Positions 2,137-36,561 of a stretch of 64,000 bases of DNA are shown in pieces. A program made the translations under genes and the position numbers. Position 1 is the stretch's first letter; the number at the start of each line of letters is the position of its first letter. The stretch comes from Dehalococcoidia bacterium (GTDB lineage: Bacteria; Chloroflexota; Dehalococcoidia; Lucifugimonadales; UBA3495), in contig OZ250156.1 of assembly GCA_965237745.1 (NCBI GenBank), positions 1,953,426 to 2,017,425 of the forward strand, in the 5' to 3' direction. Under the pieces are notes generated by a model. That model searched no databases, had not been told where the DNA came from, and saw only the letters and a program-made list of their open reading frames with translations.

Positions 2137-3085
<949 letters not shown>

Positions 3086-3105
<20 letters not shown>

Positions 3106-4087
3106 CCTGCATTTCCTCCTTCTGGCTCACCAGCCAGCACATTGCTTTCCAGTCTTCACCGGGGCTGCAAACGGGCGGCTCCTCTACCCTGCAGCGATCC
3201 ATTACCTGGGGGCAGCGTGGGTGGAAGTAACACCCTTGAGGCAGCGACGCCAAGTTGGGCGGATGCCCGGGGATTGCAAACAACGGTTCTTTGCTGCCAA
3301 TCTTAGGGATCGATCCCAAGAGGGCCTGGGTGTAGGGATGCTGGGGGTCGCGGAAGACTTCCCTCACGCTCCCCTGCTCCACGATCTGACCCGCGTACAT
3401 CACGGCCAGCTTGTCGCACATCTTGGCCACGATGCCCAAATTGTGGGTAACGAAGATCAGCCCGACCCCCATTTCCCGTTGGATATCTTTTAGAAGATTC
3501 AGGTACTGAGCCTGAATAGTCACATCAAGGTTGGTCGTGGGTTCATCAGCGATTATCAATCCTGGGCCACCGGCGAGGGCAATTGCCCCCACGATGCGCT
3601 GGCGCATACCGCCGCTCATCTGGTGCGGGTATTCCTTCATCCTCGTTTCGGGGGACGGGATACGCACAGACTGGAGCAGGCTCCTCACTCGCTCCCTCAA
3701 AGCACGGCCATGCAGGTCCTGATGATAGTACGCCGGTTCGCCCACCTGCGTTCGGATGCTGAACAGAGGGTTGAGCGAAGCCATAGGGTCCTGGAGAATC
3801 ATGGCAATGCGGCTGCCTCGAATGCGGCGCATCTCGCCGTTGGATTTCTTGGTGAGGTCGTCGCCTTCGAATTCGATGCTGCCCTCCACGATTCGACCAG
3901 CGGGCGGCAGAAGGCGGACCAAGGAGAGGCAGGTTGTGGTCTTGCCACACCCCGACTCGCCGACCAGACCCATGGTCTCGCCTGCTTCCAGCGTGAAATC
4001 AATGCCGTCCACGGCCTTCACCACACGCGTGCCGCGAAAGGTGAAGAAGTGGGTCTTCAGGCCCGACACTTTTAGCAAAGGAGGCAT
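3086..4087 (-). CDS. peptide/nickel-type ABC transporter ATP-binding protein (OppD/DppD-like)
   Basis: Walker A GESGCGKTT, signature MSGGMRQRIVGAIAL, Walker B LIIADEPTT, C-terminal GCYFHPRCPQV. 20-nt overlap with the downstream ATPase gene. Confidence 0.9.
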
Positions 4088-4105
4088 AGGTCGCTTCCTC
4101 TTTCC

Positions 4106-5011
4106 CTAGAGATTCCTCAACTGTGGGTCCAACTTGACGCGGAGCCAGTCGCCCATAACCTGGGTGGCCAGCACCACCAGCATGATGGCCAGGCCTGGGA
4201 AGACGGTCAGCCACCACCGGCCAGTCAGCAGCGTGGGCCTGGCCTCCGCCAACATCGAACCCCACGCTGGGGCCGGAGGCGGCACGCCGACTCCCAAGAA
4301 GCTCAGGGAGGCCTCGGCGATGATGACCACACCGATAGTCAGGCTGGCCAACACTATTGTGGTGTTCATCACGTTGGGTACGATGTGGCGAATCATTACT
4401 CTGAACTTGGTGGCGCCGGCCACCTCGGCCAGCTTCACATACTCCCGCTCCCGGAGGCTGAGCACCTCACCGCGGATAACCCTGGCGTATCGCGTCCAGA
4501 ACACCGCCCCCAGGATAATGACGATGTTCCACATACTTGGTCCCACGAGGGTTGCCAGGAATATGGCGAATATGAGCGAGGGGAGCGCCAGCCAAGCATC
4601 GGTGATACGCATTATTGTCGTGTCCACCCACCTCCCCATGTAGCCGGAAAGCACTCCCATCGCGGTGCCGATTGCTGCGGCGGCGAGGGTGCCCACAAGC
4701 CCCACAATGATGGAGACACGGCTCCCATGAACCAAGCGGCTGAACACGTCCCGCCCTTGGAAGTCAGTGCCCAGAATGGCCGTAGAGCTGCCCCCTTCCA
4801 ACCACATGGGCGGCGCAAAGAATGCGGGCTCGATATTTTCCACGGGCAGTTCCGGGTCATGGGGGGCTATGACGTTGGCGAAGATGGCCAAGATACCCAG
4901 GAGCGAAATGATCACGACCGCCAGCACGGGCATTTCGCGTACTGTCCGCAGCCCTGCTTTCACGCTCTGGATTCTGGGAATAGCCCTCCCCGGTACAGCT
5001 ACAGTTGCCAT
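4106..5011 (-). CDS. ABC transporter permease (DppC/OppC-like)
   Basis: Multi-TM protein with the conserved cytoplasmic loop region (YVKLAEVAGATKFRVMIRHIVPN). Operon context. Confidence 0.85.
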   Translation of the reverse strand: MATVAVPGRAIPRIQSVKAGLRTVREMPVLAVVIISLLGILAIFANVIAPHDPELPVENIEPAFFAPPMWLEGGSSTAILGTDFQGRDVFSRLVHGSRVSIIVGLVGTLAAAAIGTAMGVLSGYMGRWVDTTIMRITDAWLALPSLIFAIFLATLVGPSMWNIVIILGAVFWTRYARVIRGEVLSLREREYVKLAEVAGATKFRVMIRHIVPNVMNTTIVLASLTIGVVIIAEASLSFLGVGVPPPAPAWGSMLAEARPTLLTGRWWLTVFPGLAIMLVVLATQVMGDWLRVKLDPQLRNL

Positions 5012-5022
5012 AAGCGCTCATC

Positions 5023-5946
5023 CTACCGTGTGAGACGGATTCGAGGGTCAATGTAGGCGTACGCGATGTCCACCACGAAGTTCGCGATCACAATCAGGAT
5101 GCCGATCATAATGACGGCCCCCTGCACCAGAGGGAAGTCCCGCTGGAATATGCCGGCATAGAGCAGGCTTCCCACACCCGGCCAAGCGAAGATGACCTCG
5201 ATGACCACCGCGGTATTCAGCAGCAGTACAAGGTATATACCTGCCCAGGTCACCACGGGGATCAGGGCGTTCTTGAAGGCGTGTTTGCCGATGACGACAT
5301 AGTCCGGCATACCCTTCAGTCTTGCCAGCTTGATGTACTCGCTGCCGAGCACGTCCAGCATGCTGGAGCGGGTCAGGCGCATGAAGGAGGCGGCAAAGTA
5401 CCACCCCAACGCAATGCAGGGTAAGACCAAGTGGGAAAAGCCTCCCTTACCGGCCACCGGCAGCACGCTGAGGTACAACCCGAACACGATAAGAAGCACC
5501 AGCGCTAACCAGAAATTGGGAATTGCCAGCCCAAGCAGGGCGACTATCTTACCCAGGCTGTCCCACCATGTGTTGAGCTTGACCGCCGACAGGATGCCCA
5601 AGGGAATCCCGACTACCATGGCAAAAATGAGAGCGCCGGCGGCAAGCTGGAGGGATGCCGTAAACCGCTGGAAGTACAACTCACGCACAGGGCGGTTGAA
5701 CTGGAACGATTGCCCAATGTCTCCCTTGAACACGTTGCTCATAAAGGAGAAATACTGTTCGGGATAGGACTTGTCCAAGCCCCACTGGGCCCGCAGACGG
5801 GCCAGATCTTCCTCGCGGGCGCCAGGTTCGGAATACAGCCGCGCCGGGTCGCCCCCGGCAATCCTCACGAGGCTGAAGATGGTGACGCTGATTATCAGGA
5901 GGGTAATTATGCTGTAAAAGAAACGCCGTAAGATGAACTGTCGCAC
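5023..5946 (-). CDS. ABC transporter permease (DppB/OppB-like)
   Basis: N-terminus MRQFILRRFFYSIITLLII and loop YIKLARLKGMPDYVVIGKHAFKNALIPV are typical of this family. GTG start preceded by AAGGTGAGG. Confidence 0.85.
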   Translation of the reverse strand: MRQFILRRFFYSIITLLIISVTIFSLVRIAGGDPARLYSEPGAREEDLARLRAQWGLDKSYPEQYFSFMSNVFKGDIGQSFQFNRPVRELYFQRFTASLQLAAGALIFAMVVGIPLGILSAVKLNTWWDSLGKIVALLGLAIPNFWLALVLLIVFGLYLSVLPVAGKGGFSHLVLPCIALGWYFAASFMRLTRSSMLDVLGSEYIKLARLKGMPDYVVIGKHAFKNALIPVVTWAGIYLVLLLNTAVVIEVIFAWPGVGSLLYAGIFQRDFPLVQGAVIMIGILIVIANFVVDIAYAYIDPRIRLTR

Positions 5947-5959
5947 TTTACCTCACCTT

Positions 5960-5995
5960 TATGCCACCCGACTCTGGTATGCCACCCGACTCCGG
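5960..5995. repeat. 18-bp tandem duplication (2 copies) just upstream of the permease start
   Basis: tatgccacccgactctgg / tatgccacccgactccgg read directly at 5960-5977 and 5978-5995. Confidence 0.8.
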
Positions 5996-6068
5996 CGTGG
6001 TTGCGAAAAATCGTTGCCCTGACCTCGCTGTTCTTCCGGGCCTCACGGGCCCATCAAATCTCGAAGTC

Positions 6069-6518
6069 TCATTCCCGGTCGATGATGAGCTGGCGACCAA
6101 TGTCCCAACTCTCATCCATTACTCCCATCACCACGTTGGTCTCATAGGCCAAATTCACCACCACTCGGTGCGGCGTAATTATGTCCCTTGACTTAATCCC
6201 GGCGCGGTCTCCCACTCCGGGATGCCTGCTCTCGAAGTAGAAGGTGTATTCGTAGCATCCCGGGCAGAATTTGATGGCCCGGCTGGTTTCCAGCTTGAAG
6301 GTTTCTTCTATGCCGTCAAAACGGAAGGTAGGCGAATTTCGGACGAATTCCTCGGCTACCTGAATGCTGGCGGAACTGCCGACCGGCCCGGTGAGAGGAT
6401 AGTAGGCCGCGGCGGCCGCGCCACCCAAGACCAGCAGCACGGCCAGCAGCGGCATGTGCCGGAATCGCCGGTCGAACAATCGTATCCGACCGTAGACGTT
6501 TACCAGTTGCGCCCTCAA
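6069..6518 (-). CDS. hypothetical membrane-anchored protein embedded in the ABC operon
   Basis: 149-aa ORF with one N-terminal hydrophobic helix (PLLAVLLVLGGAAAAAYY) followed by a soluble domain containing CPGCYEY. No family recognised. Start may be the internal M at 6455. Confidence 0.5.
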   Translation of the reverse strand: MRAQLVNVYGRIRLFDRRFRHMPLLAVLLVLGGAAAAAYYPLTGPVGSSASIQVAEEFVRNSPTFRFDGIEETFKLETSRAIKFCPGCYEYTFYFESRHPGVGDRAGIKSRDIITPHRVVVNLAYETNVVMGVMDESWDIGRQLIIDRE

Positions 6519-6546
6519 CCCAATTCCTTCCTGTCGTGGTTCCGGC

Positions 6547-8298
6547 CTAATTGTCTACCACTTTCCAGTTCTCCCAGGGCGGACCATAGAACTCCATCTG
6601 GGGATTGGCGAAGATTTCCTTGCCTTCGCCCCACTGGTCGCGGTTGGCGATGCGCGGGCCGATGGCGTTGATAAAGCTGAACCAATAGATGGGAATTTTG
6701 TAGAATCCTGCGGACAGTTTATCTTGGGCGTCAGCCGCTAATCGTTCGCGCTCGTCAGGGTCAACCGACGCCTCGTATTGCGATATTACACCGTCGATTT
6801 CAGGGTCGCACATTCGGGAAGAGGCGGCCTCGCACCCGACATAGGCGTTGAAGCGGGCAACGAAAGCGCCGGTGGTTCCGGTGCCGATCAGCAGTATCTG
6901 AGTCTCCCCTCCCCATGCATCATTGCGCTCTTGGTAAGTATCTCCTTCCGCCAACCGGTCGAAGTAAGTGCCACGCTCCATGGTCTGCAACTTGGCGTTT
7001 ATGCCGATGCGACGGATCTGGCTTATAACCCTCTCACCCAGGCTGAAGTAGTTGGGAATGGGGCTGAGCCATTCAACGTCGAACCCATCCGGGTGACCGG
7101 CCTCGGCCATCAATTGCTTGGCCCTGTCCAAGTCCTCCTCAGGCGCTTCGAGGGGGGGCGCCAAAAGGATGTTGGGCGGAATCCAGTAGTTGGCGGGCTT
7201 GGCGTGTCCTCCGGTCTCCGCGTCGCTGATGGCCTGCCGGTCCAGGGCCAGGCCCACCGCTTCGCGCACCCGGGCATCGTTGAAGGGATTGTCAGGGTTG
7301 TGCATATGGGGGAATTCCAGCCAGAAAACGGAGGTGGTCAGCGTCGGAACCAAGAGCAGGTCGGGATTATCAACCACGCGCTCTATCAGCTCCCCCGCTA
7401 CGTTGTACATCACGTCCACGTCTCCGGCTTCGATGAGAGCCAGACGTGTGGTTGGTTCCTGCACCGACCGCATGGTGAATTCCTTCACATGCACCGGCCG
7501 GTGGTAGTCCTCAAAAGCCTCAAACCTCAGACTGTCGCCCGGTAGTTCTTCGAGCAACTTGAAGGGACCGGCGCCCACCGGCGCCTGGATAAATCCCTCA
7601 TTTCCGACTTCCTGATAATAATCCGCCGGCACGACAAATCCGGCGCCGGTGGAAAAAGTGCCGTAGAGCAACAGGAAGTCCAAGAAGGGCGCGTTGAAAT
7701 TGAAGCGGATGGTGCTGGGGTCAATGACGTCAACGCCCGCAGTGCTTGCTTGAAACACGTCTGCTTGGGCGCCACTGTAGTTCTCGAAGGTGAACTTCAC
7801 GTCCTCGGTCGTGACCGGCTCTCCGTTGTGGAATGAGGTACCGGGTCGCATCTGGAACGTGATGCTCGAGAAGTCCTCGGCCCACTCCCAACTCTCAGCC
7901 AGACTGGGCGTATTGAGAGCCTGGGGCATTATCTTCACCACTGCATCGTGCAGCGCGTAGGCGAAGTTGTAGGGAGTTGCCATCGCCGGGTTGTCCTGGG
8001 GGTCCAGCCAACTGGATGACAGGCCGGCGTGCCACGCAAGGCTCATCTCGCCTGAAGCAACCACGCTGGCCTGAGCCGGGGTCGGGGCGGAAGTTGGCGC
8101 GGCGGCAGGCGTGGGAGCCTGGGGATTGGTTGCGGTGACCGGTGCCGGAGCCTCAGTGGCGGCCGGCGCCGGGGCAGACGTGGCGGGGGCCTCCGGCGCA
8201 GTGGTGGCGGCTTCGCCACAACCGACGGCCGTTAAAAGAGCTAGCGCCAAGGCAGTAACCAGAAACAACGCAGGTTTTCGAAGCCGGCTCCATACCAT
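6547..8298 (-). CDS. ABC transporter substrate-binding lipoprotein, family 5 (peptide/nickel type)
   Basis: Signal peptide plus lipobox (LLTAVGCGEA), Ala/Pro/Thr-rich linker, then a family-5 SBP-like body. Start set at MVWSRLRK (8298) rather than the track start at 8355. Confidence 0.85.
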   Translation of the reverse strand: MVWSRLRKPALFLVTALALALLTAVGCGEAATTAPEAPATSAPAPAATEAPAPVTATNPQAPTPAAAPTSAPTPAQASVVASGEMSLAWHAGLSSSWLDPQDNPAMATPYNFAYALHDAVVKIMPQALNTPSLAESWEWAEDFSSITFQMRPGTSFHNGEPVTTEDVKFTFENYSGAQADVFQASTAGVDVIDPSTIRFNFNAPFLDFLLLYGTFSTGAGFVVPADYYQEVGNEGFIQAPVGAGPFKLLEELPGDSLRFEAFEDYHRPVHVKEFTMRSVQEPTTRLALIEAGDVDVMYNVAGELIERVVDNPDLLLVPTLTTSVFWLEFPHMHNPDNPFNDARVREAVGLALDRQAISDAETGGHAKPANYWIPPNILLAPPLEAPEEDLDRAKQLMAEAGHPDGFDVEWLSPIPNYFSLGERVISQIRRIGINAKLQTMERGTYFDRLAEGDTYQERNDAWGGETQILLIGTGTTGAFVARFNAYVGCEAASSRMCDPEIDGVISQYEASVDPDERERLAADAQDKLSAGFYKIPIYWFSFINAIGPRIANRDQWGEGKEIFANPQMEFYGPPWENWKVVDN

Positions 8299-8651
8299 GC
8301 TGGACCTCCAATGGGGTGGAGAATAACCGCAGGCGACACGAGAGCGAATCGACAATTGCCAACCCCCAATGACTGAGGAGACCAGATACAGCGCCGAGAA
8401 AAAATGGATGCTTCTTAGGTCTTGCCTGGTGGATGACCTGCCTCAAACATCTGGAGGGCGTGAGAGAGGGTCGAGTCTTGTCAATTTGACTGCCGTTCCC
8501 GGAATCTACGCGAGTCCGACGCGGCTCACTCCCGAACTCGGGCAAACCCGTACGGTGCCATTCCCTCGGTGATGTTCCAGATCCTTCCTGCGCCGGCCCG
8601 GCTGCCGTTCCATTGCGCCGGTCCGTGATTTTGGCTTAAAGTGGGGTCGCG

Positions 8652-9686
8652 ATGCAGACCGAGCGGTGGCAATTCGGTGATTGGGAAGATGCTCTGGAAT
8701 TCTATTTCCGGGAGGGTCTGACTGACGGGTTGCCTGTCGTTCCGCCCACTCCGGAACGGGTTCAGGCCCTGTTGGACTACTGCGGACTGGCCCCGGAGGA
8801 TATCTTGGGAACCGAGGGCATCCGGCACAAGCGGTTCCCCGCTGGGAAAGTGGCGGTCAGCGCGGTGATGGCCGGCTGCCTGCCGGAGCATTTCCCGGTG
8901 GTCGTGGCGGCGGTGTCCGCGGTCTGCGACCGCACCTACAACTTCCACGCCAGCAGCACGTCAACCAACGGGATCGCCAACCTTGTGCTGGTCAGCGGTC
9001 CCTACGCCTCCCGCATCGGCATGAATCAGGGGGTCAACCTCTTCGGCAACGGGAACCGGGCCAACGCCGCCATCGGCAGGGCCGTCAATCTGATCAAGGC
9101 CAACTTTTACGGCTCGATTTCTCAGGAAATGGACAAGAGCACTTTCGGACACTCCGGAAAGTACAGCTTTTGCTTCGCGGAGGACCTGGAAACGAGCCCT
9201 TGGCCCTCTCTGGCCGAAGTGAAGGGTTTTCGCCGGGACGCCAGTGTGGTCACAATGGTTGCCGCCAACGCTCCGTTGCAATTGGAAACCCACGGCGACC
9301 GGGACCCAGAGGGCTTCCTCACCGCAGCCGCCCACGCGATGTTGGGGTTCGGGCCAAGGCTATCGGAAGTTGTGCTGGTGATCAGCCAAGAGTTGATGGC
9401 ATACGTGGCGGCCTCCGGCTGGAACCGCTCCCAAGTGGCCGAATTCCTTGATGAAAAGACCAAGCGGCCTGCGGGCGAGTGGGATCTGTGGCGGCGCATT
9501 GACAGACTTCCGCCGGACGCGGACCGCGAATTGTTAATGGGTTGCGTTGCCGGCCCTGACCGGATAACCGTCGTCCCGGCGGGCGGCGACGCCGGGGAAT
9601 TCATGGCGCTCATTACGTCTTGGGGAAGCAGCCGTTCCGTAACCAAGGAAATAGCGGTACCCCGCCAGGAGGTGGACGACGCATGA
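8652..9686 (+). CDS. conserved hypothetical protein (partner of the UGSC selenoprotein gene)
   Basis: 344-aa ORF with coding-like composition (GLTDGLPVVPPTPERV...). Its TGA overlaps the downstream ATG (ATGA at 9683-9686). No family recognised. Confidence 0.6.
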   Translation: MQTERWQFGDWEDALEFYFREGLTDGLPVVPPTPERVQALLDYCGLAPEDILGTEGIRHKRFPAGKVAVSAVMAGCLPEHFPVVVAAVSAVCDRTYNFHASSTSTNGIANLVLVSGPYASRIGMNQGVNLFGNGNRANAAIGRAVNLIKANFYGSISQEMDKSTFGHSGKYSFCFAEDLETSPWPSLAEVKGFRRDASVVTMVAANAPLQLETHGDRDPEGFLTAAAHAMLGFGPRLSEVVLVISQELMAYVAASGWNRSQVAEFLDEKTKRPAGEWDLWRRIDRLPPDADRELLMGCVAGPDRITVVPAGGDAGEFMALITSWGSSRSVTKEIAVPRQEVDDA

Positions 9687-10213
9687 CAAGCATCTACACT
9701 CTCGACCCCAGGGACACGGCAGAGACGTCGCCGGCGGCGCTGGCCATTCGTCCGGCCAGCCTTGACGGCAAGACGCTTGGCCTGCTTTCCAACAACAAGC
9801 CCCACTCCGAGGAGTTGCTGCGGATGGTGGCCGGTATAGTCGGCCAGCGCTACTCTCTGGCGGAGGTTGTGGAATACAACAAGGGAGGCCACCAGTGGCC
9901 TGCCGATCGTTCCGCCCTGGAGGACCTTGCCCGCCGTTGCGATGTGATGATTCACGCCACCGCGGAATGAGGGTCCTGCACGTCGTGCAGTGTGCATGAC
10001 GCGATGGAGATGGAGCTGTTGGGAGTGGCCTCCACAGTACTGACGACTAGGCCCTTCGTCACCCAGGCCCGGGCAATGGCCCGACTGCGCGGCGACGCCG
10101 ACTACGGACTTGCCGTTATCGACCACCCGATCGTCACGCTGACCCCAGAGGAGTTGGCGGTCCGAGCCACAGTCGCCGCCCCACAGGCGATACGTCATTT
10201 GTTGGACAGGTAA
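9683..10213 (+). CDS. UGSC-family selenoprotein candidate (in-frame TGA at 9968-9970 read as Sec)
   Basis: Track ORFs 9620-9970 and 9992-10213 are in the same frame, separated only by the TGA and six sense codons. Read-through gives ...HATAE-U-GSCTSCSVHD...; the U-G-S-C motif matches the family name as I recall it. A hairpin lies directly 3' of the TGA. Confidence 0.65.
9973..10000 (+). promoter_or_regulatory. candidate bacterial SECIS hairpin
   Basis: gtcctgcac (9973-9981) pairs with gtgcatgac (9992-10000) with one mismatch and a 10-nt loop GUCGUGCAGU. An alternative perfect 6-bp stem is ctgcac/gtgcag (9976-9990). The structure starts 3 nt after the UGA. Confidence 0.45.
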
Positions 10214-10294
10214 CCCGGGGCAGGGACGCGTATTTTGTCAACGGCCATGTCCCTCGCTTGGTCGACAATGGTATCTGATGTTGATGCCTGTAGA

Positions 10295-10378
10295 GTTGAC
10301 GGGATTCGGGTGGACTGACGCTTCACCACCGGGGACGCCCGCATCAAGCTCAAGTCTCTCTACCCATCAATACAATAG
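10295..10378 (+). pseudogene. IS630-family transposase C-terminal remnant
   Basis: VDGIRVD*RFTTGDARIKLKSLYPSIQ* resembles the ...DW.FTT.DARIKLK.LYP C-terminal tail of IS630-type transposases. The expected W codon is TGA. Confidence 0.45.
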
Positions 10379-10513: not shown

Positions 10514-11664
10514 CTACAAAACTAAAGCCAAGGTGGGATGTGCATCTGGCTGGTGGTGGGAATCTGGATGGGGGTTACGCAGGAGCCCCTCTGCTCTTGA
10601 TTGCAGGACTGTACGGCACCGGCGTTTCACCTCTTCTTTCCATCCGGCCAGCGCGGCGAGGAAGTTCCCGACCCTCTCTTGCACCCGAGACTTGGTTCCC
10701 AGGCACAGGTTTCCGGTGGCTTCCTCTCTCGCCCAGCCCCAGACCGCCTCATCGGCGTTGAAGTCCGGACTGTAACCCGGCAGGTTCATCAGCCTCAGGG
10801 CCAAGCCCGGTGTCCGCAGATATTCACGCACCGCCTCCCCGCGGTGGGCCGGCGCGTTGTTCCAGATCACGCCCAGCGGCCCGGAGTGCCTCTGCCGCAA
10901 CCGCTCCAGGAAGGCAGCCGAGGTTCCGGGGTTGCTGTTGCCTTCCAGCTCCATCCACTCCACCTCCCCGGTCTCCAGACACACTGCCGAGTAATAGCTG
11001 GCCTTTTCGCCATAGCTCGGACTGGTCGAATCCACCAAAGCCTGCCCTCCCCGCAGCACCCACTTGCCCCGCAGTTCGGCATCGGCCCGGAAGTGCGCCT
11101 CGTCGGCAAAGAATATCTTCGCTCCCGTACGCCGCGCCTCGTCCGACAGGGTGGCGTACTCCGCCACGAAGGCCTCCCGCTTGGCCTCATCCGCCTTGAT
11201 CAAGCGCTTCTTGAGACGCCTCAGGACGAATCCCAAGCGGTGCAGATAGTTCAAACAACTGCTGCGGCTCAACTCGATGCCGAACCGTTCCGAGACGAAC
11301 TGCCGAACTCCCCTCCAATACCAGTTGGCCAGTTCGATGCCCGCCTGCTCCGGCAACTCCTGCACCGCTGCCTTCAACTCCGCCTGTTGCGTCTCGCCAA
11401 GGGCGGGGGGGGAACCCCGGTCTGCTCGAATATCAAGGCTGCAGGCCCTCCCTCGCCGAAGGCGGCCAGCCAACGGCCAATGGTGTGGGGATCCCGTTCC
11501 AACGCCTCCGCCGTGGACGAGGCGGTCCAGCCCTGTGCCAGCAGCAGCATGGCGTACCACCGCTCCCGTCCCCTGGGCGTTGGCGCCAGAATCGTCTGGC
11601 GGCGCAAGGCCTTGGCATCCATCTGCCATTGTTCCAGAAACTGGTCCATCTCCCTCACGCCCAT
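10514..11664 (-). CDS. IS630-family transposase (two frames joined by a -1 shift on a C8 run)
   Basis: Upstream frame: HTH region (WYAMLLLAQGWTASSTAEALERDPHTIGRWLAAFGEGGPAAL). Downstream frame: DDE region (FFADEAHF...IWNNAPAHR...LPGYSPDFNADEAVW). The frames meet at the G8/C8 run 11405-11412. The stop codon uses the flanking TA. Confidence 0.8.
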
Positions 11665-11758
11665 CACCAACCCCCCGCTATTCCCAAGACCAGCTAACCC
11701 AGTTCTCCCCACAAATTTACCTTATGACTCTGCGCTTTTCACCTTGGCTTTAGTTTAG
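10517..11758 (-). mobile_element. IS630-family insertion sequence, flanked by TA/TA
   Basis: Terminal inverted repeats aaactaaagccaaggtg (10519-10535) and caccttggctttagttt (11740-11756). TA at 10515-10516 and 11759-11760. Encodes an HTH + DDE transposase. Confidence 0.85.
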
Positions 11759-11760
11759 TA

Positions 11761-13160
11761 CTACAGTTGCAGATTAACGATGTAGAATATGCCATCACAT
11801 GATGATGAGGTGAGGTGGTGGCAGGGCACGGTGATGAGGTAGCGGAAGTGACGCGGTGGGCCGAGGGCATTGAGCAGGTGCACGAGTGCATCGGGGGAAG
11901 GTTCCGGCGGCCGGAGCCGCGCCGCCGGGTGCTGGACTATCTGCGGGGACTGCTCAGTCCGGTGGAACGCAAGAATGGCTGGCAACTGGCGGAGCAGGCG
12001 GGCGACGCCACTCCCGACGGGGTGCAGCGCCTGCTGTCCACCTACGTCTGGGACGCGGATCTGGTGCGCGACGATCTGACGGGTTACGTGGTGGAGCATC
12101 TGGCCGACGCTGAGGCAGTTCTGGTGGTGGACGAAACCGGCTTTCTTAAGAAGGGAGACAAGTCGGTTGGGGTGCAGCGTCAGTACAGCGGCACTGCGGG
12201 GCGGATCGAGAACTCTCAGATTGGGGTATTCTTGGCCTATGCCGCTTCCCGAGGGAGGACGCTGCTGGACCGGGAGTTGTACCTGCCCCAGGTCTGGGCG
12301 GAGGACTGGGAACGTCGGCGGGAGGCCGGGGTGCCTGAGGATGTTTCCTTTCGAACCAAGCCGCAACTGGCGCAGTTGATGCTGGAGCGGGCGGTGGAAT
12401 CGGGAGTCCCCTTCGGCTGGGTTGCCGGAGATGAGGTCTACGGCAATGACCGCAACCTGCGGCTGTGGCTGGAGCGTGAGGGGCTGTCCCATGTGCTGGC
12501 CATCAAACGCAGCGAGAAGCTGTGGGCATTGACGGAAAAGGGTCCTCGTCAGGTAAGAGCCGATCGGCTGGCATCGCAGGTTGAGGAAACTGGCTGGGTG
12601 CGGTGCAGCTCGGGCGACGGGGCCAAGGGGCCGAGGGTGTACGATTGGGCTACCGTGGAGCTAAGGCCCCTCAAAGAGCCTGGCAAGGGCTATTGGCTGC
12701 TGTTCCGACGCAGTCTGTCCGACCCCGGGGAACTGGCCTACTATGTCTGTTACGGCTTGGCGGGAACAGCCCTGAAGGAACTGGCAAGGGTCGCCGGGAC
12801 CCGTTGGGCCATTGAGGAATGCTTTGAGGAGGCCAAGGGACAGGTGGGACTGGACCAGTACGAGGTGCGGAGGTGGGATGGCTGGTACCGGCACATCACC
12901 CTGGCGATGCTGGCGCAGGCGTATTTGACCGTGATCAGGCAACAAGCGCTGGAACAGGGAGAAAAGGGGGGCACTACGGTCCCGATGAAGAGCTGATACC
13001 CTTGACGGTTCCGGAGCTGCGCCGGCTGCTCACCCGCCTGGTATGGACGGAAACCCAACCGCCTGATTCCATCCTGTACTGGTCGTGGTGGAGACGGCGC
13101 CACCAAGCCCGGGCCCAGCGTTGCCACTACAAACGCCGCCTGTCCAATCTGCGGCTGTAG
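11761..13160 (+). mobile_element. IS701-family insertion sequence
   Basis: Inverted repeats ctacagttgcagatt (11761-11775) and aatctgcggctgtag (13146-13160). TA on both flanks. The complementarity may extend 3-5 bp further out, so ends are +/-5 bp. Confidence 0.75.
11815..12996 (+). CDS. IS701-family DDE transposase
   Basis: 393-aa ORF: RFRRPEPRRRVLDYLRGLLSPVERKNGWQLAEQAG...LVVDETGFLKKG...VQRQYSGTAGRIENSQIGVFLAY...VAGDEVYG, typical of IS701/ISAzo13-like transposases. Confidence 0.85.
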   Translation: MVAGHGDEVAEVTRWAEGIEQVHECIGGRFRRPEPRRRVLDYLRGLLSPVERKNGWQLAEQAGDATPDGVQRLLSTYVWDADLVRDDLTGYVVEHLADAEAVLVVDETGFLKKGDKSVGVQRQYSGTAGRIENSQIGVFLAYAASRGRTLLDRELYLPQVWAEDWERRREAGVPEDVSFRTKPQLAQLMLERAVESGVPFGWVAGDEVYGNDRNLRLWLEREGLSHVLAIKRSEKLWALTEKGPRQVRADRLASQVEETGWVRCSSGDGAKGPRVYDWATVELRPLKEPGKGYWLLFRRSLSDPGELAYYVCYGLAGTALKELARVAGTRWAIEECFEEAKGQVGLDQYEVRRWDGWYRHITLAMLAQAYLTVIRQQALEQGEKGGTTVPMKS

Positions 13161-13191
13161 TACTAGGGAGTGTCGTCAAAATAATAACCTG

Positions 13192-14022
13192 ATGGTACAT
13201 TGCTGTGGAGAGTGTGAGGGAGTGGGGTTGGGGTATGACAGCAGCGCATCGAGGGCACGACCTTTCGGACAAGGTATGGAACGCTTGCAGCCTCTGTTGC
13301 CTGGAGGAGCAGGCCAAAGGGGTCGCCCGGCCAGGGACAATCGACTGTTTGTGAACGCGGTGTGTTGGATACTGCGGACTGGGGCGCCTTGGCGTGACCT
13401 GCCGCCGGACTACGGGGACTGGAAGAACACCCATCGCCGCTTCTGCCGCTGGCGGGACCGGGGCGAGTGGGCCAAGCTGCTGGAAGCGGTGCTGGATGAC
13501 CCGGATCTCGAATGGCTGATGATTGACGCCATCTACATCAAGGCCCATCCTCACAGTGCCGGCGCCCGGGGGGAGCCAAGCCATCGCCCGCACAAAAGGG
13601 GGCTGAACAGCAAGCTGCACCTGGCGGTGGACTCCCGGTGGACTCCGGTCCCGGTGGACTCCCGGTGGACTCCCGGTAAGGCTGGCGGTTACTGGAGGCC
13701 CGGTGGCCGATGCTCCTTGGCGTTGCCCCTGATCGAGGGTATAGCAGCGGAGTGTCTGTTGGCGGACAAAGCCTATGACACCAATGAAATCATAGCCACC
13801 GCCCGGGAATCGGGAATGAACCCGGTGATACCGCCCAAAAGCAACCGGAGGGAAAAGCGGGACTATGACCGGGCGCTGTACAAGTTGCGGCACTTGGTGG
13901 AGAACGGGTTCTTGGAATTCAAGCAGTGGCGCGGGGTGGCGACCCGTTACGCCAAAAGGACGGCATCATACTTGGCCGCCTGCCAACTCCGGGCAGTGAT
14001 GATCTGGAGCAAACTCTTTTGA
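13192..14022 (+). pseudogene. IS5-family transposase, probably defective
   Basis: Conserved blocks GRPARDNRLFVNAVCWILRTGAPWRDLP, LADKAYDTNEII and GFLEFKQWRGVATRYAKR. The expected N-terminal LSDKVW+ERLQPLLP is split between frames (apparent 1-nt loss near 13276). An 11-nt repeat expansion sits at 13627-13675. Confidence 0.7.
13627..13675 (+). repeat. tandem ~11-nt repeat (gtggactcccg, about 4 copies) inside the IS5 transposase gene
   Basis: gtggactcccg gtggactccg gtcccg gtggactcccg gtggactcccg read directly. Translates as VDSRWTPVPVDSRWTP, unlike the usual LHLAVDxxGxPV block. Confidence 0.8.
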
Positions 14023-14033
14023 CGACACTCCCT

Positions 14034-14698
14034 TACGTTCCCGGTCACGTCGACCGGCTCGCTGAAGGTGAAGGTGAAGGTGAACTCGATTTTGTCGTCC
14101 TGCCCATAGGTGTCGTTCGCCGCTGGGGTGGAACTCACTGCCACGTCGAGGGCCGCGGGCTGGCCCTCGACCTTGGCGTAGTGGTGATAGCCGCCGGTGT
14201 ATGTCTTTGAGGCGAGTACCTCGTGTTTGTATGTTTCACTGGCGTTGTCGCCAATCTAGGTTTCGATGGTGCTGCCGGTGAGCCCGGTGGCCCCATCGCT
14301 GTCGTCGATGGTGATCCCGTTCCAGTCGGTGTCCGTCTCCAGCACGGTGTAGACGAAGGTGAGTTTCGTTGTCTTCCAGAACTGGTGCTCCACCACGTTG
14401 GTCATGATGCGGGCTTGGCGGAAGTTGCCGTCGCCGCTTCCTATCCGGAAATCAACCTCCAAGACGTCGCTCACGATATGTACATTCTTATCGTAGGTCA
14501 CGTCTATGTGGATCTGTTCGCCCGCCGGTAGGCCAGGCCGTCGGTGGGCGGCCGGGGTGCCACGCTCTCGATTTCGGCCGGTTCGGTGGTGATGGCGCTG
14601 GCTGGTTCTGCGAGCATGAGAAATAGCGCGGCGACCCCGAGGGTTATCAATATGAGTGCTGTCAGACGGCGGGGAATTGCTGGTGCTGCTGTTTTCAT
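14034..14698 (-). pseudogene. secreted repeat-domain protein, disrupted (frameshift, nonsense codon, truncated by IS5)
   Basis: Signal peptide MKTAAPAIPRRLTALILITLGVAALFLMLAEPASA, then a TAG at 14504-14506 with the reading frame continuing 2 nt out of phase (GEQIHIDVTYDKNVHIV...). An in-frame TAG lies at 14256-14258. The frame runs straight into the IS5 right end at 14033. Confidence 0.65.
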
Positions 14699-15719
14699 GG
14701 TGTGCCTGTCCCTTGGTTCTGGGATTGGATTCCGGAAAATGCCAATGGCCGACAGTTTGCCGTTTGACCCGATTCCTTCCTCGCTTTGGTGCTGTCCTTC
14801 ACGTGCTGTTCAGCAGGTCGGCACCCTTGGGTCATTCTTCGCGGTCCATACAATCCGCGCTGAAAGCTGCAACAGGTGCCTGTTCGCCAGTTTGGAAACC
14901 TGGGACTAACAAAGACCTGCGGCGGGTTAATCTCTATTCGCCATCCACAGGGTGATGTGGCCCCGTTTTCCTGATGTCGGCACCGGCGGTAATGCAAATG
15001 GTATGGCGCTATCGGAAGACTGGACCGAATTCGCACCAGAGCTGGGTGAATGCGTCCGTGTATCCGGCACGGTATGTGATGCCCTCACCTGAAGGTTGCA
15101 GTTGCTGTCACCTATACGCCAATGTTCTCAGCCGAATGGAACGGCGAGGTCAAGAGGAGAAGCGTGCTGGTGGTGCCTGCAACATCTGTGTGGTCAGAGA
15201 GGTTCACAACGCCGTTGTGGCCGGGTCCCGTTATTCAAAACGGACCATCCACTGCGATGAATTTACATAATTGCCCATTGGAGGATTGTTGCGTGAAGAT
15301 TGGCATGTACGGCCCCTGTTTGCATTGATGAATCTTCACATCTACAACTCCTCACTGGCTGCTGCTAACTCAATGGTACTATAACCGCACTGCCAATACC
15401 ACCGCCGCATAACTGAAGCCGGCAGTACCCATTCAATCCCACATTGTCAGATATTCAATAAGCCAAGCTTGGATACTACCTTTGTGTAATGAAATGGTGT
15501 GAAGAGACTATGTTGTGGGAGGTGGGTGGGTTCAGGGTGCAGGAAAAATTCGCTGTTCGGTTAGACGCCGGGGTGAAGGGGCGGGTCAGGCAGATGATAA
15601 GAGCTGGCAGTCAGTCATACCAGAAATGGCAGTTGCTGAAAAACAAGTCTCAGGGGACTGTGAACGGAACTGACTGTCACTCGTGAAAATCATCCTGCCA
15701 TTTCAAACGCGACTGACTA

Positions 15720-16257: not shown

Positions 16258-18279
16258 CTATCCCCGCCCGTTCCGCAGTAGGCGGCCGGGGTAGGCGCCG
16301 GTGGGTTCGCCGTCCTGGAACGTCACCTCGCCGTTGACCATGGTGTAGCGGTAGCCATTTGCCTTCTGGATGCGGCGCCACTCGCCGCCGGGCAGGTCTT
16401 CCGCCACCTCGCTGGGCAGTACCTCCAGCTTTTCGAGGTCGTATATGACCACGTCAGCCGGGGAGCCCTCGCGCAACGCACCACGGTCCTGGAAGCCGCC
16501 GAAGTGGGCGGGCAGGAAGGACAGCTTGTAGTGAGCGTCCTCCAGCGTGATGACCTTCTCGTCGCGCACCAGCCAGGTGAGCATGTCCGTCGGGTAGATG
16601 CCCGCGGTCAGGAACTTGACGTGGGCGCCACCGTCGGACACACCAGCCACGATATGGTTGGAGTCCAGCACCTCTGCGGTGTACTGGGCTTGGTCGCGGC
16701 CCTGGGTGTCGGCGTAGAACTCGGTGGCCAGATCGTCCTCGACGCACATGTCCAGCAGCGCGTCAATGACGTGCTTACCCTGCTCGTCGGCTATCTGCTG
16801 TACCGTCAGACCGGCCTGCGGGCTGGAGGCCTCGGTTTCGTCGGGGGCCAGCGCAATCATGCGGCCGTCAACGACGTTGGCCACGAAGGACTTCATTCGC
16901 AGGTCAGGGTTGGTGATGCAGCGTCCGCCGTCGTGCTCGTACTCGTAGGCGTGGGTGTCGCAGACAAAGGCGTCGCCCTCGTCGCCGATAGTGCCGCCCT
17001 GGTGCGGGCAGACCACCGACAGCAGCTTGAAGCCATCACGGGTGTTGACCAAGAAGTAGTCGGCCCCGGCGACGTTGACCTTGGCGGGCATCCGGGTGAA
17101 GTCGGACTCGGCGCCTATGTCAATCTTGACCTTGCGGGTCATCACTTGCAGGCTGCCTACCGAGCCTTGAATCACCAAAGTGGGGCGGGTGCCCGAGTCC
17201 CACTCTTCCTTCAGCTTACGGCGCATCTCCGGGTCCTGCATCTTGGCCTTACGAGTGGCCTTGTCGCCCAAGGTGACCTCGCGCCACATCGGGGTGTCGT
17301 CAAACAGGTTCCAGTCCTCAAAGGTCAGCTCGAAGCCGCCGCGGCGAGTGGCGCCCTGACCGTAAACGCGCAGGCCACGCTCGGCGCAACTCTCCAGCCA
17401 GCGGATGCGCTCGCGGTGCTGCTCGGGGTGGATGGCGTTGGGGGCGACGGCCTGGTAGAGCACCGGGCGACCTGAAACTTCAGCCACACGCTCGAAGAAA
17501 TTGCGCGTCTCCTCACCCAAGGGGCGGCCATCTTCTCCCGTTTCCTGGTAGGCCAGCTCAATGAAGCCCTCGTCGCGGTCTCGGAGCACCTGCGCGAAGG
17601 AGAGTACCTCATGCTCCGACAGCAGGTCGGTAATCATCGGGGTGCCGTCGTAGTCGCGTTGTACGGAGGTTTCGCCGAGAACCTGGGCCGACCAGCCGCA
17701 GGCGCCGTGGTCCATGGCCTCGTGAATCAACCGCACCATTTCCTGCAGTTCGGCCTCGGTCGGGCGGCGGGTCTTGGCCTCGTCCCAGCCCATCACCCAA
17801 GCGTATAGGGGGGTCAGCGGGACGTAGGTCAGGCAGTTGATGCCCTTGGGTGTGTTCTCAAGGCTGTCGATGAAGTCCGGGAAAGTGACCCAGTCCCAGG
17901 GCATGCCCGCCTTCATGGCGTCGTAGGGGATGGCCTCGTTGCGGGTCATGCTGAGCATTGAGCGGTCCTGGTCCTCCACGCGGGAGGGTGCAAAGCCGAA
18001 GCCGCAGTTACCCAGGGCCACGGAGGTTACGCCGTGCCAGCCGGACAGGGTGCAGTAGGGGTCCCAGAAAATCTGGGCGTCGTAGTGGGTGTGCAGGTCG
18101 ATGAAGCCGGGGGCTACTATAAGGCCCTTGGCGTCGATTTCCCGGTCCGCGTCGCCGCCATTCAGCCCGCCAATCTTTGCGATGCGCCCGTCTTTGATGG
18201 CCACGTCGCTGATGTAGCGGGGCGCGCGCGTCCCGTCGACAATTGTGCCGCCTCTGATGATGATGTCGTAGGTTGCCAT
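16258..18279 (-). CDS. D-aminoacylase-family amidohydrolase with an inserted Rieske-like segment
   Basis: N-terminus YDIIIRGGTIVDGT...APGFIDLHTHYD...GNCGFGFAP and C-terminus GVSDGGAHVKF...DRGALREGSPADVVIYD are typical of N-acyl-D-amino-acid deacylases. Internal CPHQGGTIGDEGDAFVCDTH...GGRC. Start set at MATYD (18279) with a GGAGAAGGG RBS. Confidence 0.8.
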   Translation of the reverse strand: MATYDIIIRGGTIVDGTRAPRYISDVAIKDGRIAKIGGLNGGDADREIDAKGLIVAPGFIDLHTHYDAQIFWDPYCTLSGWHGVTSVALGNCGFGFAPSRVEDQDRSMLSMTRNEAIPYDAMKAGMPWDWVTFPDFIDSLENTPKGINCLTYVPLTPLYAWVMGWDEAKTRRPTEAELQEMVRLIHEAMDHGACGWSAQVLGETSVQRDYDGTPMITDLLSEHEVLSFAQVLRDRDEGFIELAYQETGEDGRPLGEETRNFFERVAEVSGRPVLYQAVAPNAIHPEQHRERIRWLESCAERGLRVYGQGATRRGGFELTFEDWNLFDDTPMWREVTLGDKATRKAKMQDPEMRRKLKEEWDSGTRPTLVIQGSVGSLQVMTRKVKIDIGAESDFTRMPAKVNVAGADYFLVNTRDGFKLLSVVCPHQGGTIGDEGDAFVCDTHAYEYEHDGGRCITNPDLRMKSFVANVVDGRMIALAPDETEASSPQAGLTVQQIADEQGKHVIDALLDMCVEDDLATEFYADTQGRDQAQYTAEVLDSNHIVAGVSDGGAHVKFLTAGIYPTDMLTWLVRDEKVITLEDAHYKLSFLPAHFGGFQDRGALREGSPADVVIYDLEKLEVLPSEVAEDLPGGEWRRIQKANGYRYTMVNGEVTFQDGEPTGAYPGRLLRNGRG

Positions 18280-18452
18280 GAACCCTTCTCCTCGAGATTG
18301 AATGAATAGGGAGGGGGTGGGGTATCCAGAAGGTCTACCCAGAATTTTAGGTATTACCATTCACGCTGTCAAACAGCAGAAATTCTAGTTGTATACGGTG
18401 TAATTACTCCTGAAATGTAACGAATATCGTTACTAATCTCTCGTAATAATAC

Positions 18453-20932: not shown

Positions 20933-22054
20933 ATGCAAGCACAGGATGCACCGGCCCATCCGTCGGCGCGCACCTCAATGGCACCGGTGGTCGCTGTAGT
21001 GTCGACCACGCCCGAGACGGTGCGGGATGATATAGCCCGCGCCATGGAGCTCGCTGAGGCCGACGAGTTTCTGAACCCGGGAAACCGCACGCTGCTGAAG
21101 GTCAACATATCATGGCAGCACTGGTACCCTGGATGCTCGTCCACTCCTTGGCAGATAGAGGGAGTCGCCAACGCTCTCAGGGCTATGGGCCATGCCGATT
21201 TGGTGGCGGCCCACAACGGCACAGTGGTAGTGGATTCCTATGAGGGCGAGGAGAATAACAAGCACAAAGCGGCCCAGGACCGGGCGAACCTGCCCGCCAT
21301 CCACTTGGACAGCCCTCCCAACCGCTGGATTGACTACAAGCCTCGCGCCGAAATGCTGGCCTTGGACGACATATTCCCCGAGGGGATCCAGATTCCTGAG
21401 TGTTTTCCAGGGACAAACATAGTCCATCTGCCCACGATGAAGACCCATGTGTTCACCACGATGACCGGGGCGATGAAGAATGCATTCGGGGGCCTGCTCC
21501 ATCGCAAGAGGCACTGGACGCATTCAGTCATCCACGAAACGCTGGTGGACCTGCTGGCGATCCAACAGGAGATTCACCCCGGCCTGTTCGCGGTGATGGA
21601 CGGCACCTTCGCCGGAGATGGTCCTGGCCCCCGGGCCATGCGCTGGCACGTCAAGAACCGCATCCTAGCCAGTGCCGACCAAGTGGCCATCGACGCTGTG
21701 GCTGCCAAGATGATGGGCTTCGATCCAATGAGCATACCCTTCATAAGGCTGGCGCACGAACGCGGCCTGGGATGCGGCGAGGTCGCGGACATCGAGGTCC
21801 GGGGCGAGGACATCAGCGGGGTTAACTGGCAGTTCTCGGGCGTCGAAAACACCTTTGCCAGCCGAGGGCAGAAGCTCATCTATTGGGGGCCGCTCAAGCC
21901 TCTGGAGAATATGCTGCTGCGCAGTCCCATCGTCGGCTGGGCTTTCCTGGCTTCCAACCTGTATCACAACGGCTACTGGCTCAAGACCAAGGGCCGACGC
22001 CGCATCGTAGCAGCCCTCAAAACCGAATGGGGCCGCCTGTTCCAGTCTTACTAG
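20933..22054 (+). CDS. DUF362 domain-containing protein
   Basis: LLKVNISW..., HLPTMKTHVFTTMTGAMKNAFG, FAVMDGTFAGDGPGP, ILASADQVAIDAVAAKMMGFDP. Start possibly at MAPVV (20978). Confidence 0.75.
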   Translation: MQAQDAPAHPSARTSMAPVVAVVSTTPETVRDDIARAMELAEADEFLNPGNRTLLKVNISWQHWYPGCSSTPWQIEGVANALRAMGHADLVAAHNGTVVVDSYEGEENNKHKAAQDRANLPAIHLDSPPNRWIDYKPRAEMLALDDIFPEGIQIPECFPGTNIVHLPTMKTHVFTTMTGAMKNAFGGLLHRKRHWTHSVIHETLVDLLAIQQEIHPGLFAVMDGTFAGDGPGPRAMRWHVKNRILASADQVAIDAVAAKMMGFDPMSIPFIRLAHERGLGCGEVADIEVRGEDISGVNWQFSGVENTFASRGQKLIYWGPLKPLENMLLRSPIVGWAFLASNLYHNGYWLKTKGRRRIVAALKTEWGRLFQSY

Positions 22055-22074
22055 GGCCGGACGGAGGGGACGAA

Positions 22075-23391
22075 ATGCCGATTAGCAAATTCCGAATCAC
22101 CAACGCCGGGCCATTCGACGACATCACTTTCGAGTTCGATGAGCAGGTCAACGTCTTCGTCGGCCCAAACAACTCCGGCAAGTCCACTGCTCTGCTGGCG
22201 TTGGCGACAGCCTCCGTGCATCCGTTCCAGTTTCCGTGGAAGCTGTTTAACAAGTCGCCTTTTGAAGCTAAATGCGAGATAACGGTACATTGTGGTAATC
22301 AAGAAACTCAAACCGAATTGTACTTAGCTCAACCAGTCGTGGACTATCAAAGATCAATTGAGTTCCTAAGTGCAATAGGATTTTCGACTTTCATCCCATC
22401 TATTCGCAGAAGCACAGAATATAGGGCGGAAATTCCTGAAGTCGAGTCTATGGCACAGTTGATAGCCCAGATATTTTCCTCGTCTGAAGCTCAAGAATTC
22501 ACAAATCTCAATGAATTTCAGAAAAGGTCGTTGATCACCCAAACCGACGCTAATCTAGTGAGCGACGAGTCGATCATCCAGAGGATGGTTGAGCTTGACT
22601 TCCTTGCTTACTTCCGGAGACGACCGCAGATAAAAGATTCCATTGAATTGATAGCCAGTATCGCCTCTGAAATCACTGAGGGGTATCCAATCGAATTTCT
22701 GGGTATTGGGGGAGAAGCTAAAAGTAGGTTCCCGGAATTTCGCACCCCTGATGGGAGGCTCCCTCTAAATACGCTGAGCCAAGGAACGCAATCAATCATC
22801 CAATGGCTTGCACACTTGGTGTTTGGCTACGCTCAATATAATGACTACCCGGAAGACTTGGCGGAGAAGCCTGGCATCCTTATCGTGGACGAAATTGACG
22901 CTCACCTGCACCCGTCCTGGCAGAGGCGGATTATCCCGGCGCTGACCGACAACTTCCCCAACCTGCAAATCTTCTGCTCCACTCACTCCCCTCTGATGCT
23001 GTCGGGGCTGAAAGAGGGTCAAGTGCAGTTGCTCAAACGGGGAGAGGACGGCAAGGTAGAGGCTTCCACGAACCACTGGGACATGGTGGGGTGGTCGGCG
23101 GAGGAAATTTTGAGGAGCGTTCTGGGGGTGCCGGATACGATGGATCTGACCACTGCCTCCGAGATGGACCGTATGGGAGAGTTGAGCATTAAGGAAACGC
23201 TTACTGAAGCGGAGAAAGCTGAGTTGGAGAAGCTTCAGCAGAAGGTGGTCGAAGCACTAGGAAGCGGCCCTGCATCCTCCAAGGCGGAGTTAGCTCTACG
23301 CCACATCAAACAAATCTACTCGGAAGCCCTTTCGGAATCCCCAGGAAAACCTCGGCCAAGAGTAAGAAGAAAAGAAAGCGGGTCTGCTTAA
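22075..23391 (+). CDS. ABC/SMC-like AAA ATPase (AAA_15/AAA_21 type; PtuA-like)
   Basis: Walker A VGPNNSGKSTALLAL, signature-like LSQGTQS, Walker B/H-loop ILIVDEIDAHLHPSWQ, THSPLML. Start at MPISKF (22075) with a GGAGGGGA RBS, not the track start at 21883. Confidence 0.8.
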   Translation: MPISKFRITNAGPFDDITFEFDEQVNVFVGPNNSGKSTALLALATASVHPFQFPWKLFNKSPFEAKCEITVHCGNQETQTELYLAQPVVDYQRSIEFLSAIGFSTFIPSIRRSTEYRAEIPEVESMAQLIAQIFSSSEAQEFTNLNEFQKRSLITQTDANLVSDESIIQRMVELDFLAYFRRRPQIKDSIELIASIASEITEGYPIEFLGIGGEAKSRFPEFRTPDGRLPLNTLSQGTQSIIQWLAHLVFGYAQYNDYPEDLAEKPGILIVDEIDAHLHPSWQRRIIPALTDNFPNLQIFCSTHSPLMLSGLKEGQVQLLKRGEDGKVEASTNHWDMVGWSAEEILRSVLGVPDTMDLTTASEMDRMGELSIKETLTEAEKAELEKLQQKVVEALGSGPASSKAELALRHIKQIYSEALSESPGKPRPRVRRKESGSA

Positions 23392-23394
23392 ACA

Positions 23395-34046: not shown

Positions 34047-34127
34047 AACCCCTCCGAACTCTCGCCCCCGGTGGACCCTGGAAACTACCTCTTCCCCCGG
34101 GAGTGGGTTGGGGTGAAGGGCAGAGAA

Positions 34128-36355: not shown

Positions 36356-36561
36356 ACTGGCGTGGCTGTTGGGGAGGTGTAAGATTCAGGCGTGGCGAGT
36401 CGCCGGACCAAGGCCGACAGGGCATTGGTGCCTAGCGCCCGGTGCAAAGCATGGTCCGGGAGCCTTACGGCTGCATCATTGGTGACGCCTCCAGCGGGAC
36501 GTTCCCGTTCGATAGATTGTGCGCTTTCAGTGGCTCCCTCCGGCGGCGCGCCTATGCAGCA

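Follow-up and report, generated by a model that had tools for sequence, protein, structure and literature searches.

A probable UGSC-family selenoprotein gene with a candidate SECIS hairpin and a conserved partner gene in a member of the Dehalococcoidia

The 64,000-nucleotide (nt) stretch of contig OZ250156.1 analysed here (hereafter, the window) originates from a Dehalococcoidia bacterium and very probably contains, on the forward strand at 9683–10213, a single selenoprotein gene of the UGSC family, in which the UGA codon at 9968–9970 is read as selenocysteine (Sec). All coordinates given below are positions in the window. The gene is almost certainly an ordinary new member of a known and curated selenoprotein family. 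UGSC-containing proteins with the UxxC motif were among the most abundant selenoprotein families of the Global Ocean Sampling data, with 255 Sec versus 21 Cys forms (PMC2398784). The family is recognised as one with Sec/Cys pairs (PMC2398784, PMC13188914), and its function is described as unknown in the literature (PMC1976440, PMC13188914).

The reading frame extends from the ATG at 9683–9685 to the TAA at 10211–10213 and is broken solely by the TGA at 9968–9970. In an earlier note on this DNA, the open reading frames (ORFs) 9620–9970 and 9992–10213 were claimed to share one frame and to be separated by an in-frame TGA. This holds true: read-through yields a protein of 176 amino acids (aa; 95 + U + 80) with the sequence ...MIHATAE-U-GSCTSCSVHDAM... 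around Sec, which is residue 96. The six sense codons counted there between the TGA and position 9992 need to be corrected to seven (GGG TCC TGC ACG TCG TGC AGT), followed by GTG 9992. The codons at 9968–9988 specify the motif U-G-S-C-T-S-C, that is, a UxxC motif extended to UxxCxxC in the subfamily to which this protein belongs; the C/U, G, and C residues are invariant in the homologue alignment. ATG 9683 is the likely start codon, because a Shine–Dalgarno-like AGGAGG (9667–9672) is located 10 nt upstream of it, within the end of the preceding gene, because this ATG overlaps the TGA stop of that gene as ATGA, and because the UGSC homologues begin with M and four to five further residues ahead of SIYTLDPRD.

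Family scans of the window protein were made with Cys in place of Sec. The Pfam family PF24696 ('UGSC family') was matched with 155.9 bits against a gathering threshold of 25, and residues 7–173 of the protein covered positions 3–170 of the 172 in the profile. The top match in NCBIfam was NF041046, 'UGSC family (seleno)protein' (E = 1.6e-32, 112.5 bits; 105 bits with X at the Sec position), so that the family name given in the earlier note proved to be the right one.

Homologous loci were collected in a scan of one genome per species. This gave 80 loci, two of which (L001 and L029) represent the same contig, and 80 resolved sites with the window included. The loci were mostly from metagenome-assembled genomes (MAGs) of Dehalococcoidia; the rest belonged to Betaproteobacteria, Actinomycetota, Methylomirabilia/Rokubacteria, one Chitinophaga MAG, and one haloarchaeon. 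TGA occupied the Sec column in 79 of the 80 resolved sites, that of the window among them. The lone TGC (Cys) site, at position 6847 of L068, was found in a Haloarculaceae MAG, which is also the sole archaeon among the loci. In one further locus (L066, approximately 1020–1045), an in-frame stop codon is followed by G-S-Y-T-T-C, a putative variant U-G-S-Y-T-T-C of the motif; the Cys at +3 is replaced by Tyr here and the Cys at +6 is kept.

Comparison at the protein level revealed Cys in the TGA column of all 19 full-length homologues examined, within the motif D-C-G-[SA]-C, the C, G, and C of which were invariant. Cys-containing counterparts of this kind were what the earlier note had proposed to look for. 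The first protein search yielded over 100 entries of 98–99 aa, every one of them ending with ...HATAE, along with two full-length proteins of 179 aa with CGSC; further full-length homologues of the Cys type were obtained in a second search. The DNA behind the short entries runs on in frame past the TGA. Homologues that end at this position, regarded in the earlier note as an argument against a selenoprotein, are therefore gene-caller truncations. The predicted splitting of the gene by standard callers was also encountered: one public record contains two pieces of 99 and 69 aa, both of which match PF24696.

The nucleotide diversity at the three codon positions was calculated for 59 distinct Dehalococcoidia sequences. 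It amounted to 0.223/0.151/0.451 upstream of the TGA and to 0.164/0.098/0.471 downstream of it, while after the true stop codon it was flat, at about 0.70 in all three positions. Thus, some 80 in-frame codons past the TGA display three-base periodicity of the coding type. The mean amino-acid identity was even somewhat higher downstream of the TGA than upstream of it (0.84 versus 0.79). Codons +1 to +7, which lie ahead of the first possible restart at GTG 9992, contained synonymous changes only, except for S/A/T at +5; within these seven codons, a Ser codon was changed from TCN to AGC in two loci. Judged from these alignments, the conserved TGA together with the coding signature behind it is more than a chance pattern. 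TGA also serves as the ordinary stop of 9 of the 23 Pfam-supported ORFs in the window, including the gene directly upstream, and recoding must therefore be site-specific. No other convincing in-frame TGA candidate was found within the window.

The UGA codon is followed by a hairpin at 9981–10001. It consists of a stem of nine base pairs (bp; 9981–9989/9993–10001) with a core at 9984–9998 and the apical loop GUG at 9990–9992. In columns counted from the U of UGA, positions 14–22 pair with 26–34 and the loop occupies 23–25, so that the hairpin begins 10 nt and its loop is located about 20 nt after the UGA. This is the minimum-free-energy (MFE) structure of the folded region. Third-position entropy reaches its minimum for the gene at codons +5 to +10 (0.18 versus a gene mean of 1.14), and none of the codons TGC, AGT, and GTG varies in any of the 59 sequences, despite the six-fold degeneracy of Ser and the four-fold degeneracy of Val. 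At least six consecutive bp close a 3-nt loop in 78 of 79 TGA sites; the loops are GUG in 67 sites, GUA in 8, and UGG in 4.

The pairing is retained when the bases change. At pair 18–30, G-C, G-U, and A-U all occur within the main subfamily. The hairpin stays in register across three subfamilies with different peptides at this place (CSVHD, WCSHV, and WMVHD), between which compensatory changes were detected at 21–27 (C-G to G-C), 16–32 (U-A to A-U), and 22–26 (A-U to U-G); altogether, five stem pairs are altered on both sides across these subfamilies. The covariation score was 0.298 compared with 0.095 in shuffled alignments, none of 500 shuffles reached it, and it dropped to 0.074 or less when the 3' partners were slid. 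The element at 9981–10001 is thus strongly supported by sequence comparison as a conserved candidate Sec insertion sequence (SECIS) of SelB-type geometry.

In the earlier note, the SECIS was placed somewhat further upstream, in a hairpin at 9973–10000 or, alternatively, at 9976–9990. The region contains three TGCA palindromes and can adopt several mutually exclusive hairpins as a result. Both of the structures described there can indeed form, the former with nine stem positions including one C·U mismatch and a 10-nt loop and the latter as CUGCAC-GUC-GUGCAG, and a 38-nt fragment has a variant of the longer hairpin as its MFE structure. Neither received comparative support, however, in contrast to 9981–10001. 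Pairs 10–22 and 11–21 are lost in 7–11 of 29 sequences across the subfamilies, covariation does not rise above that in shuffles (391 of 500 and 422–429 of 500 shuffles scored as high), and the invariant AGT and GTG codons would be left unexplained. We therefore consider it very unlikely that one of these hairpins, and not that at 9981–10001, acts as the SECIS.

Other explanations concern the UGA codon itself. The mechanically defined ORFs 9620–9970 and 9992–10213, the public calls of 99 and 69 aa, and the more than 100 database entries of 98–99 aa would also be compatible with two small genes, one of 95 residues ending at the TGA (9970) and one of 73 residues restarting at GTG 9992. Such an arrangement is very improbable: synonymous variation with conserved amino acids is seen in the seven codons that separate the TGA from GTG 9992, GTG 9992 sits inside the conserved hairpin, the full-length Cys homologues and the fusion proteins described below are single chains, and the Cys/Sec column would be lost. 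A sequencing error or a pseudogene, produced by a nonsense mutation in a UGSC gene of the Cys type, has a practically negligible probability. It would take only one substitution to convert TGC or TGT into TGA, and three transposase genes are located immediately downstream, but TGA occurs at this very column in nearly all of the resolved sites and in many phyla, and the coding constraint downstream of it is intact. The conservation of the TGA, the constraint on the codons that follow, and the site-specific nature of the recoding, taken together, therefore effectively exclude a pseudogene, a sequencing error, and a split into two genes.

One could further imagine that the UGA is read through with another residue, for instance a near-cognate Cys or Trp, with stimulation by the hairpin and no participation of Sec machinery. 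The fact that this machinery was not found in the sequence searched (the 64-kb window) would agree with such decoding. We nevertheless regard it as very unlikely, given that UGSC has been recognised as a family of selenoproteins in which Sec/Cys pairs occur (PMC2398784, PMC13188914), that the hairpin has SelB-type geometry with G23–U24 in its apical loop as in fdhF of Escherichia coli, and that the UGA column is the catalytic position of the UxxC motif.

Several observations weigh against the interpretation of 9683–10213 as a UGSC selenoprotein gene with a SECIS at 9981–10001. The NCBIfam search suggested in the earlier note did place NF041046 at the top, but the score of the window protein (112.5 bits) fell short of the curated cutoff of 125 bits. 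Since two other members of the Dehalococcoidia type scored 112–113 bits, as opposed to 154.9 bits for an actinobacterial (Actinomycetota) and 160.6 bits for a Methylomirabilia member (134.5 bits for the homologue P0001), this cutoff appears to be tuned to other clades and the shortfall does not point to a different family. The covariation in the hairpin reflects few independent events, which separate three clades. Its folding energy was no better than that of shuffled sequences (z = -0.31 and z = -0.74), and the hairpin could therefore not have been established from the window sequence alone. Scans against Rfam, with gathering thresholds and at E <= 10, retrieved neither a SECIS nor any other family. 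Finally, the tRNA scan of the window detected no tRNA gene, tblastn searches of the window with SelA, SelB, and SelD of E. coli gave no match, and no tRNA-Sec was found in the flanks of 60 related loci. That selA, selB, selD, and the tRNA-Sec gene were absent from the window and the related flanks is uninformative, since the window makes up 64 kb of a genome of about 4 Mb and such a result was to be expected. An ORF for a pyridoxal-phosphate enzyme at 13479–14780 (minus strand) of locus L059, about 3.5 kb downstream of UGSC, scored 44.6 bits with SelA and 44.3 bits with Aminotran_5; this ambiguous similarity is no evidence for Sec machinery.

The gene directly upstream of UGSC, at 8652–9686 on the forward strand, encodes a protein of 344 aa (hereafter, the partner). 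The partner had no match among Pfam, NCBIfam, or PDB sequences, and the same was true of eight divergent homologues scanned against Pfam and NCBIfam. Its family is large: the relatives in the databases number more than 6700, and all carry the name 'hypothetical'. A partner gene adjoins UGSC in 79 of the 80 loci, and both gene orders occur: most loci have it upstream of UGSC, and in the betaproteobacterial types and some of the SAR202 types it follows UGSC. In five loci (L061, L071, L073, L078, and L080) the two are fused, with the post-TGA ORF running on through the partner domain. Contiguous fusion proteins of the Cys type, 500–660 aa in length, were revealed as well; in these, an N-terminal UGSC part precedes a C-terminal partner part, and three of them (P0293, P0356, and P0421) match the window partner at E = 4e-42, 1e-49, and 3e-37, respectively. 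The 'UGSC/Unknown_1 fusion' reported previously (PMC2398784) probably corresponds to these UGSC–partner fusions. Long fusions that seemed to be present in L069, L076, and L081 were rejected: the partner is encoded in another frame in these loci, and their long upstream ORFs arise artificially from high GC content.

Nucleotide synteny with the closest relatives (88–90% identity) is confined to 8563–10308, that is, to the cassette alone. No third neighbour conserved across clades was found among the related loci; genes for luciferase-like monooxygenases and GFO/IDH/MocA proteins recur beside UGSC almost only within the Dehalococcoidia. The view that UGSC and its partner constitute an operon in the form of a two-gene cassette, fused in some lineages, is strongly supported by these data. 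The ATGA overlap and the AGGAGG within the first gene suggest, on the basis of sequence, that both are translated together through coupling. The residues invariant across 16 divergent partners include T105, N138, G142-R143-A144, C174, and E177. An AlphaFold2 model of the partner was confident and had a predicted local distance difference test score (pLDDT) of 82 and a predicted template modelling score of 0.84.

The fold of the UGSC protein was assessed from an AlphaFold2 model of the Cys homologue P0001, which is 50% identical to the window protein (pLDDT 86). The model contains five parallel beta–alpha units; the Cys that corresponds to Sec96 lies where strand 3 ends, at the N-terminus of a helix. 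Foldseek searches with it returned generic flavodoxin- or Rossmann-like alpha/beta domains with template modelling (TM) scores of up to 0.53, and no thioredoxin was present among the matches listed. A thioredoxin-like fold, which was suggested for UGSC earlier (PMC2398784), therefore does not appear to be supported by this predicted structure of a homologue. No meaningful match was obtained among PDB sequences, whether the query was the window protein, the partner, or the UGSC profile.

The 150 matches listed in the representative search with UGSC were all of the UGSC type. Weak similarity to selenoprotein B of glycine, sarcosine, betaine, and D-proline reductases was detected in NCBIfam scans of 20 full-length UGSC members: GrdB (TIGR01917) was matched by 16, GrdF by 14, PrdB by 11, and TIGR01918 by 10 of them. 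The matches were always located over the Sec region, with a best E-value for GrdB of 1.7e-5. When mapped without gaps, the UGSC Cys corresponds to approximately position 347 in the profile of GrdB and approximately position 149 in that of PrdB. PrdB of Clostridioides difficile carries Sec151 (PMC11229817), and the motif of GrdB is UxxCxxC (PMC13188914). This similarity, weak but recurrent, may be taken as a lead for remote homology and not as membership: the selenoprotein B scores of the UGSC relatives in the per-protein tables are 18.5 bits or less versus cutoffs of 65–800 bits. Two other features were noticed among the UGSC homologues. Five Cys-type members of 284–296 aa (P0270, P0272, and P0274–P0276) are extended at the C-terminus by about 100 aa that include a CxxC, and weak NifU matches were obtained for 2 of the 20 members scanned.

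A working scheme can be drawn from these features. In the mechanism assumed here, which is the bacterial one, SelB carrying Sec-tRNA(Sec) would bind the mRNA hairpin 9981–10001 downstream of the UGA. The partner would be translated as the first and UGSC as the second cistron of the cassette, with the ATGA overlap coupling the two. Sec96 and Cys99 of the UxxC motif, placed at the helix N-terminus of a flavodoxin-like alpha/beta domain, could form a redox or nucleophilic centre; the partner would supply the substrate site, both proteins would act as one enzyme, and, in analogy to PrdA/PrdB (PMC11229817), a thiol system might return the Sec96/Cys99 pair to its reduced state. We tentatively propose that UGSC and its partner make up one two-subunit enzyme, loosely analogous to GrdB or PrdB with its partner subunit; we see this as a possibility worth considering, somewhat short of a probable one.

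A narrower and more doubtful version of this scheme would be a two-subunit, sometimes single-chain, Sec enzyme in which UGSC is a stripped-down relative of the Sec module of the glycine/proline reductase 'protein B'. In that case, Sec96 would attack a substrate held by the partner, the conserved residues of which are T105, N138, R143, C174, and E177, and a Se–S bond with Cys99 would form and then be reduced. The following results weigh against the proposed enzyme or its relationship to protein B. The window protein itself had no GrdB or PrdB match at E <= 0.1 and no match to PF07355 at E <= 10. No partner of the pyruvoyl-proenzyme type (GrdE/PrdA) was recognised, since the partner and its eight homologues match no Pfam or NCBIfam model. 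Foldseek searches with the partner model gave best TM scores of about 0.25 (class I fumarate hydratase, Toblerone-fold, and PrpD-like proteins), which amounts to no match. Also, C174 of the partner is replaced by Val in one fusion protein.

Since 2008, UGSC proteins have figured in lists of the most abundant selenoproteins of aquatic environments, without a known function. The pairing and fusion with the partner, the weak link to GrdB/PrdB, and the defined SECIS candidate provide a concrete, testable hypothesis on this function. If true, a two-subunit Sec enzyme related to protein B would give this abundant aquatic family a function and would add a new family of catalytic subunits. The findings are also of relevance for annotation. 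Standard gene callers can be expected to split or truncate this gene. More than 100 truncated entries of 98–99 aa are already public, and members of the Dehalococcoidia subfamily score slightly too low for the NCBIfam cutoff by which their annotation would be rescued.

The surroundings of the cassette in the window are as follows. Immediately behind the UGSC gene, the region 10514–14022 contains three transposase genes: an IS630-like DDE_3 transposase with a helix-turn-helix domain at 10514–11629 (minus strand), possibly frameshifted with 11374–11712, a DDE_5 transposase at 11815–12996, and an IS4/5-type transposase at 13192–14022. The synteny shared with the closest relatives ends ahead of these genes, at about 10308. 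On the other side, an operon for a peptide ATP-binding cassette transporter of the Opp/Dpp type (2137–8355, minus strand) is oriented divergently from the cassette. It comprises genes for a family-5 solute-binding protein, two permeases, and two ATPases with oligo_HPY domains and is not conserved beside UGSC in other loci.

Several regions more distant from the cassette were recorded. At approximately 33710–34454 (minus strand), two tandem small ORFs in the same frame, both starting with MPIYEYRC..C, are split by a TGA at 34130; judged by eye, they resemble FmdB-type zinc ribbons and look like two genes, not a selenoprotein. The 210-aa ORF at 33790–34422 had no Pfam match. A 700-aa ORF at 16258–18360 (minus strand) combines amidohydrolase (Amidohydro_3/1) and Rieske [2Fe-2S] domains in an unusual architecture. 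The ORF at 21883–23391 codes for an AAA_21/AAA_15 (AbiEii/OLD-like) ATPase, possibly a defence gene gained by horizontal transfer; it lies in a patch of low GC content (0.49 in 22001–24000, compared with about 0.60 in other parts). A transposase of the IS110 family (DEDD_Tnp_IS110 and Transposase_20) is encoded at 36442–38007, just upstream of polA (38257–41061).

With respect to known systems, the window gene agrees with the UGSC family as described previously (PMC2398784, PMC1976440) in belonging to the same hidden Markov model (HMM) family, in the U-G-S-C motif, in the occurrence of Sec/Cys pairs, and in the truncated annotation; it differs in that the Dehalococcoidia subfamily scores 112–113 bits, under the NF041046 cutoff.

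The point of reference for the hairpin is the SECIS of E. coli fdhF. Both are hairpins within the coding sequence that start about 10 nt after the UGA, and both have a G/C/A-rich upper stem. The apical loop is GGUC at columns 22–25 in fdhF, folded in the same way, and GUG at 23–25 in the window; G23 and U24 are therefore equidistant from the UGA in the two elements. These are the nucleotides contacted by SelB in fdhF. The window hairpin differs in its 3-nt loop, in a perfect stem of 6–9 bp, the predicted fold of which lacks a bulged U, and in that no Rfam model matches it; binding of SelB is suggested for it by geometry.

In comparison with selenoprotein B (GrdB, GrdF, GrdH, and PrdB; TIGR01917, TIGR01918, and TIGR04483), the UGSC protein is shorter (176 aa versus about 240 in PrdB and about 435 in GrdB), and its partner has no similarity to GrdE or PrdA. 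The hosts are also different, being largely aerobic marine, soil, or sponge lineages and not Stickland fermenters. What UGSC and selenoprotein B have in common is a Sec residue in a UxxCxxC motif, weak HMM similarity around this Sec, and a gene encoded beside that of a larger partner subunit, with which the protein presumably acts.

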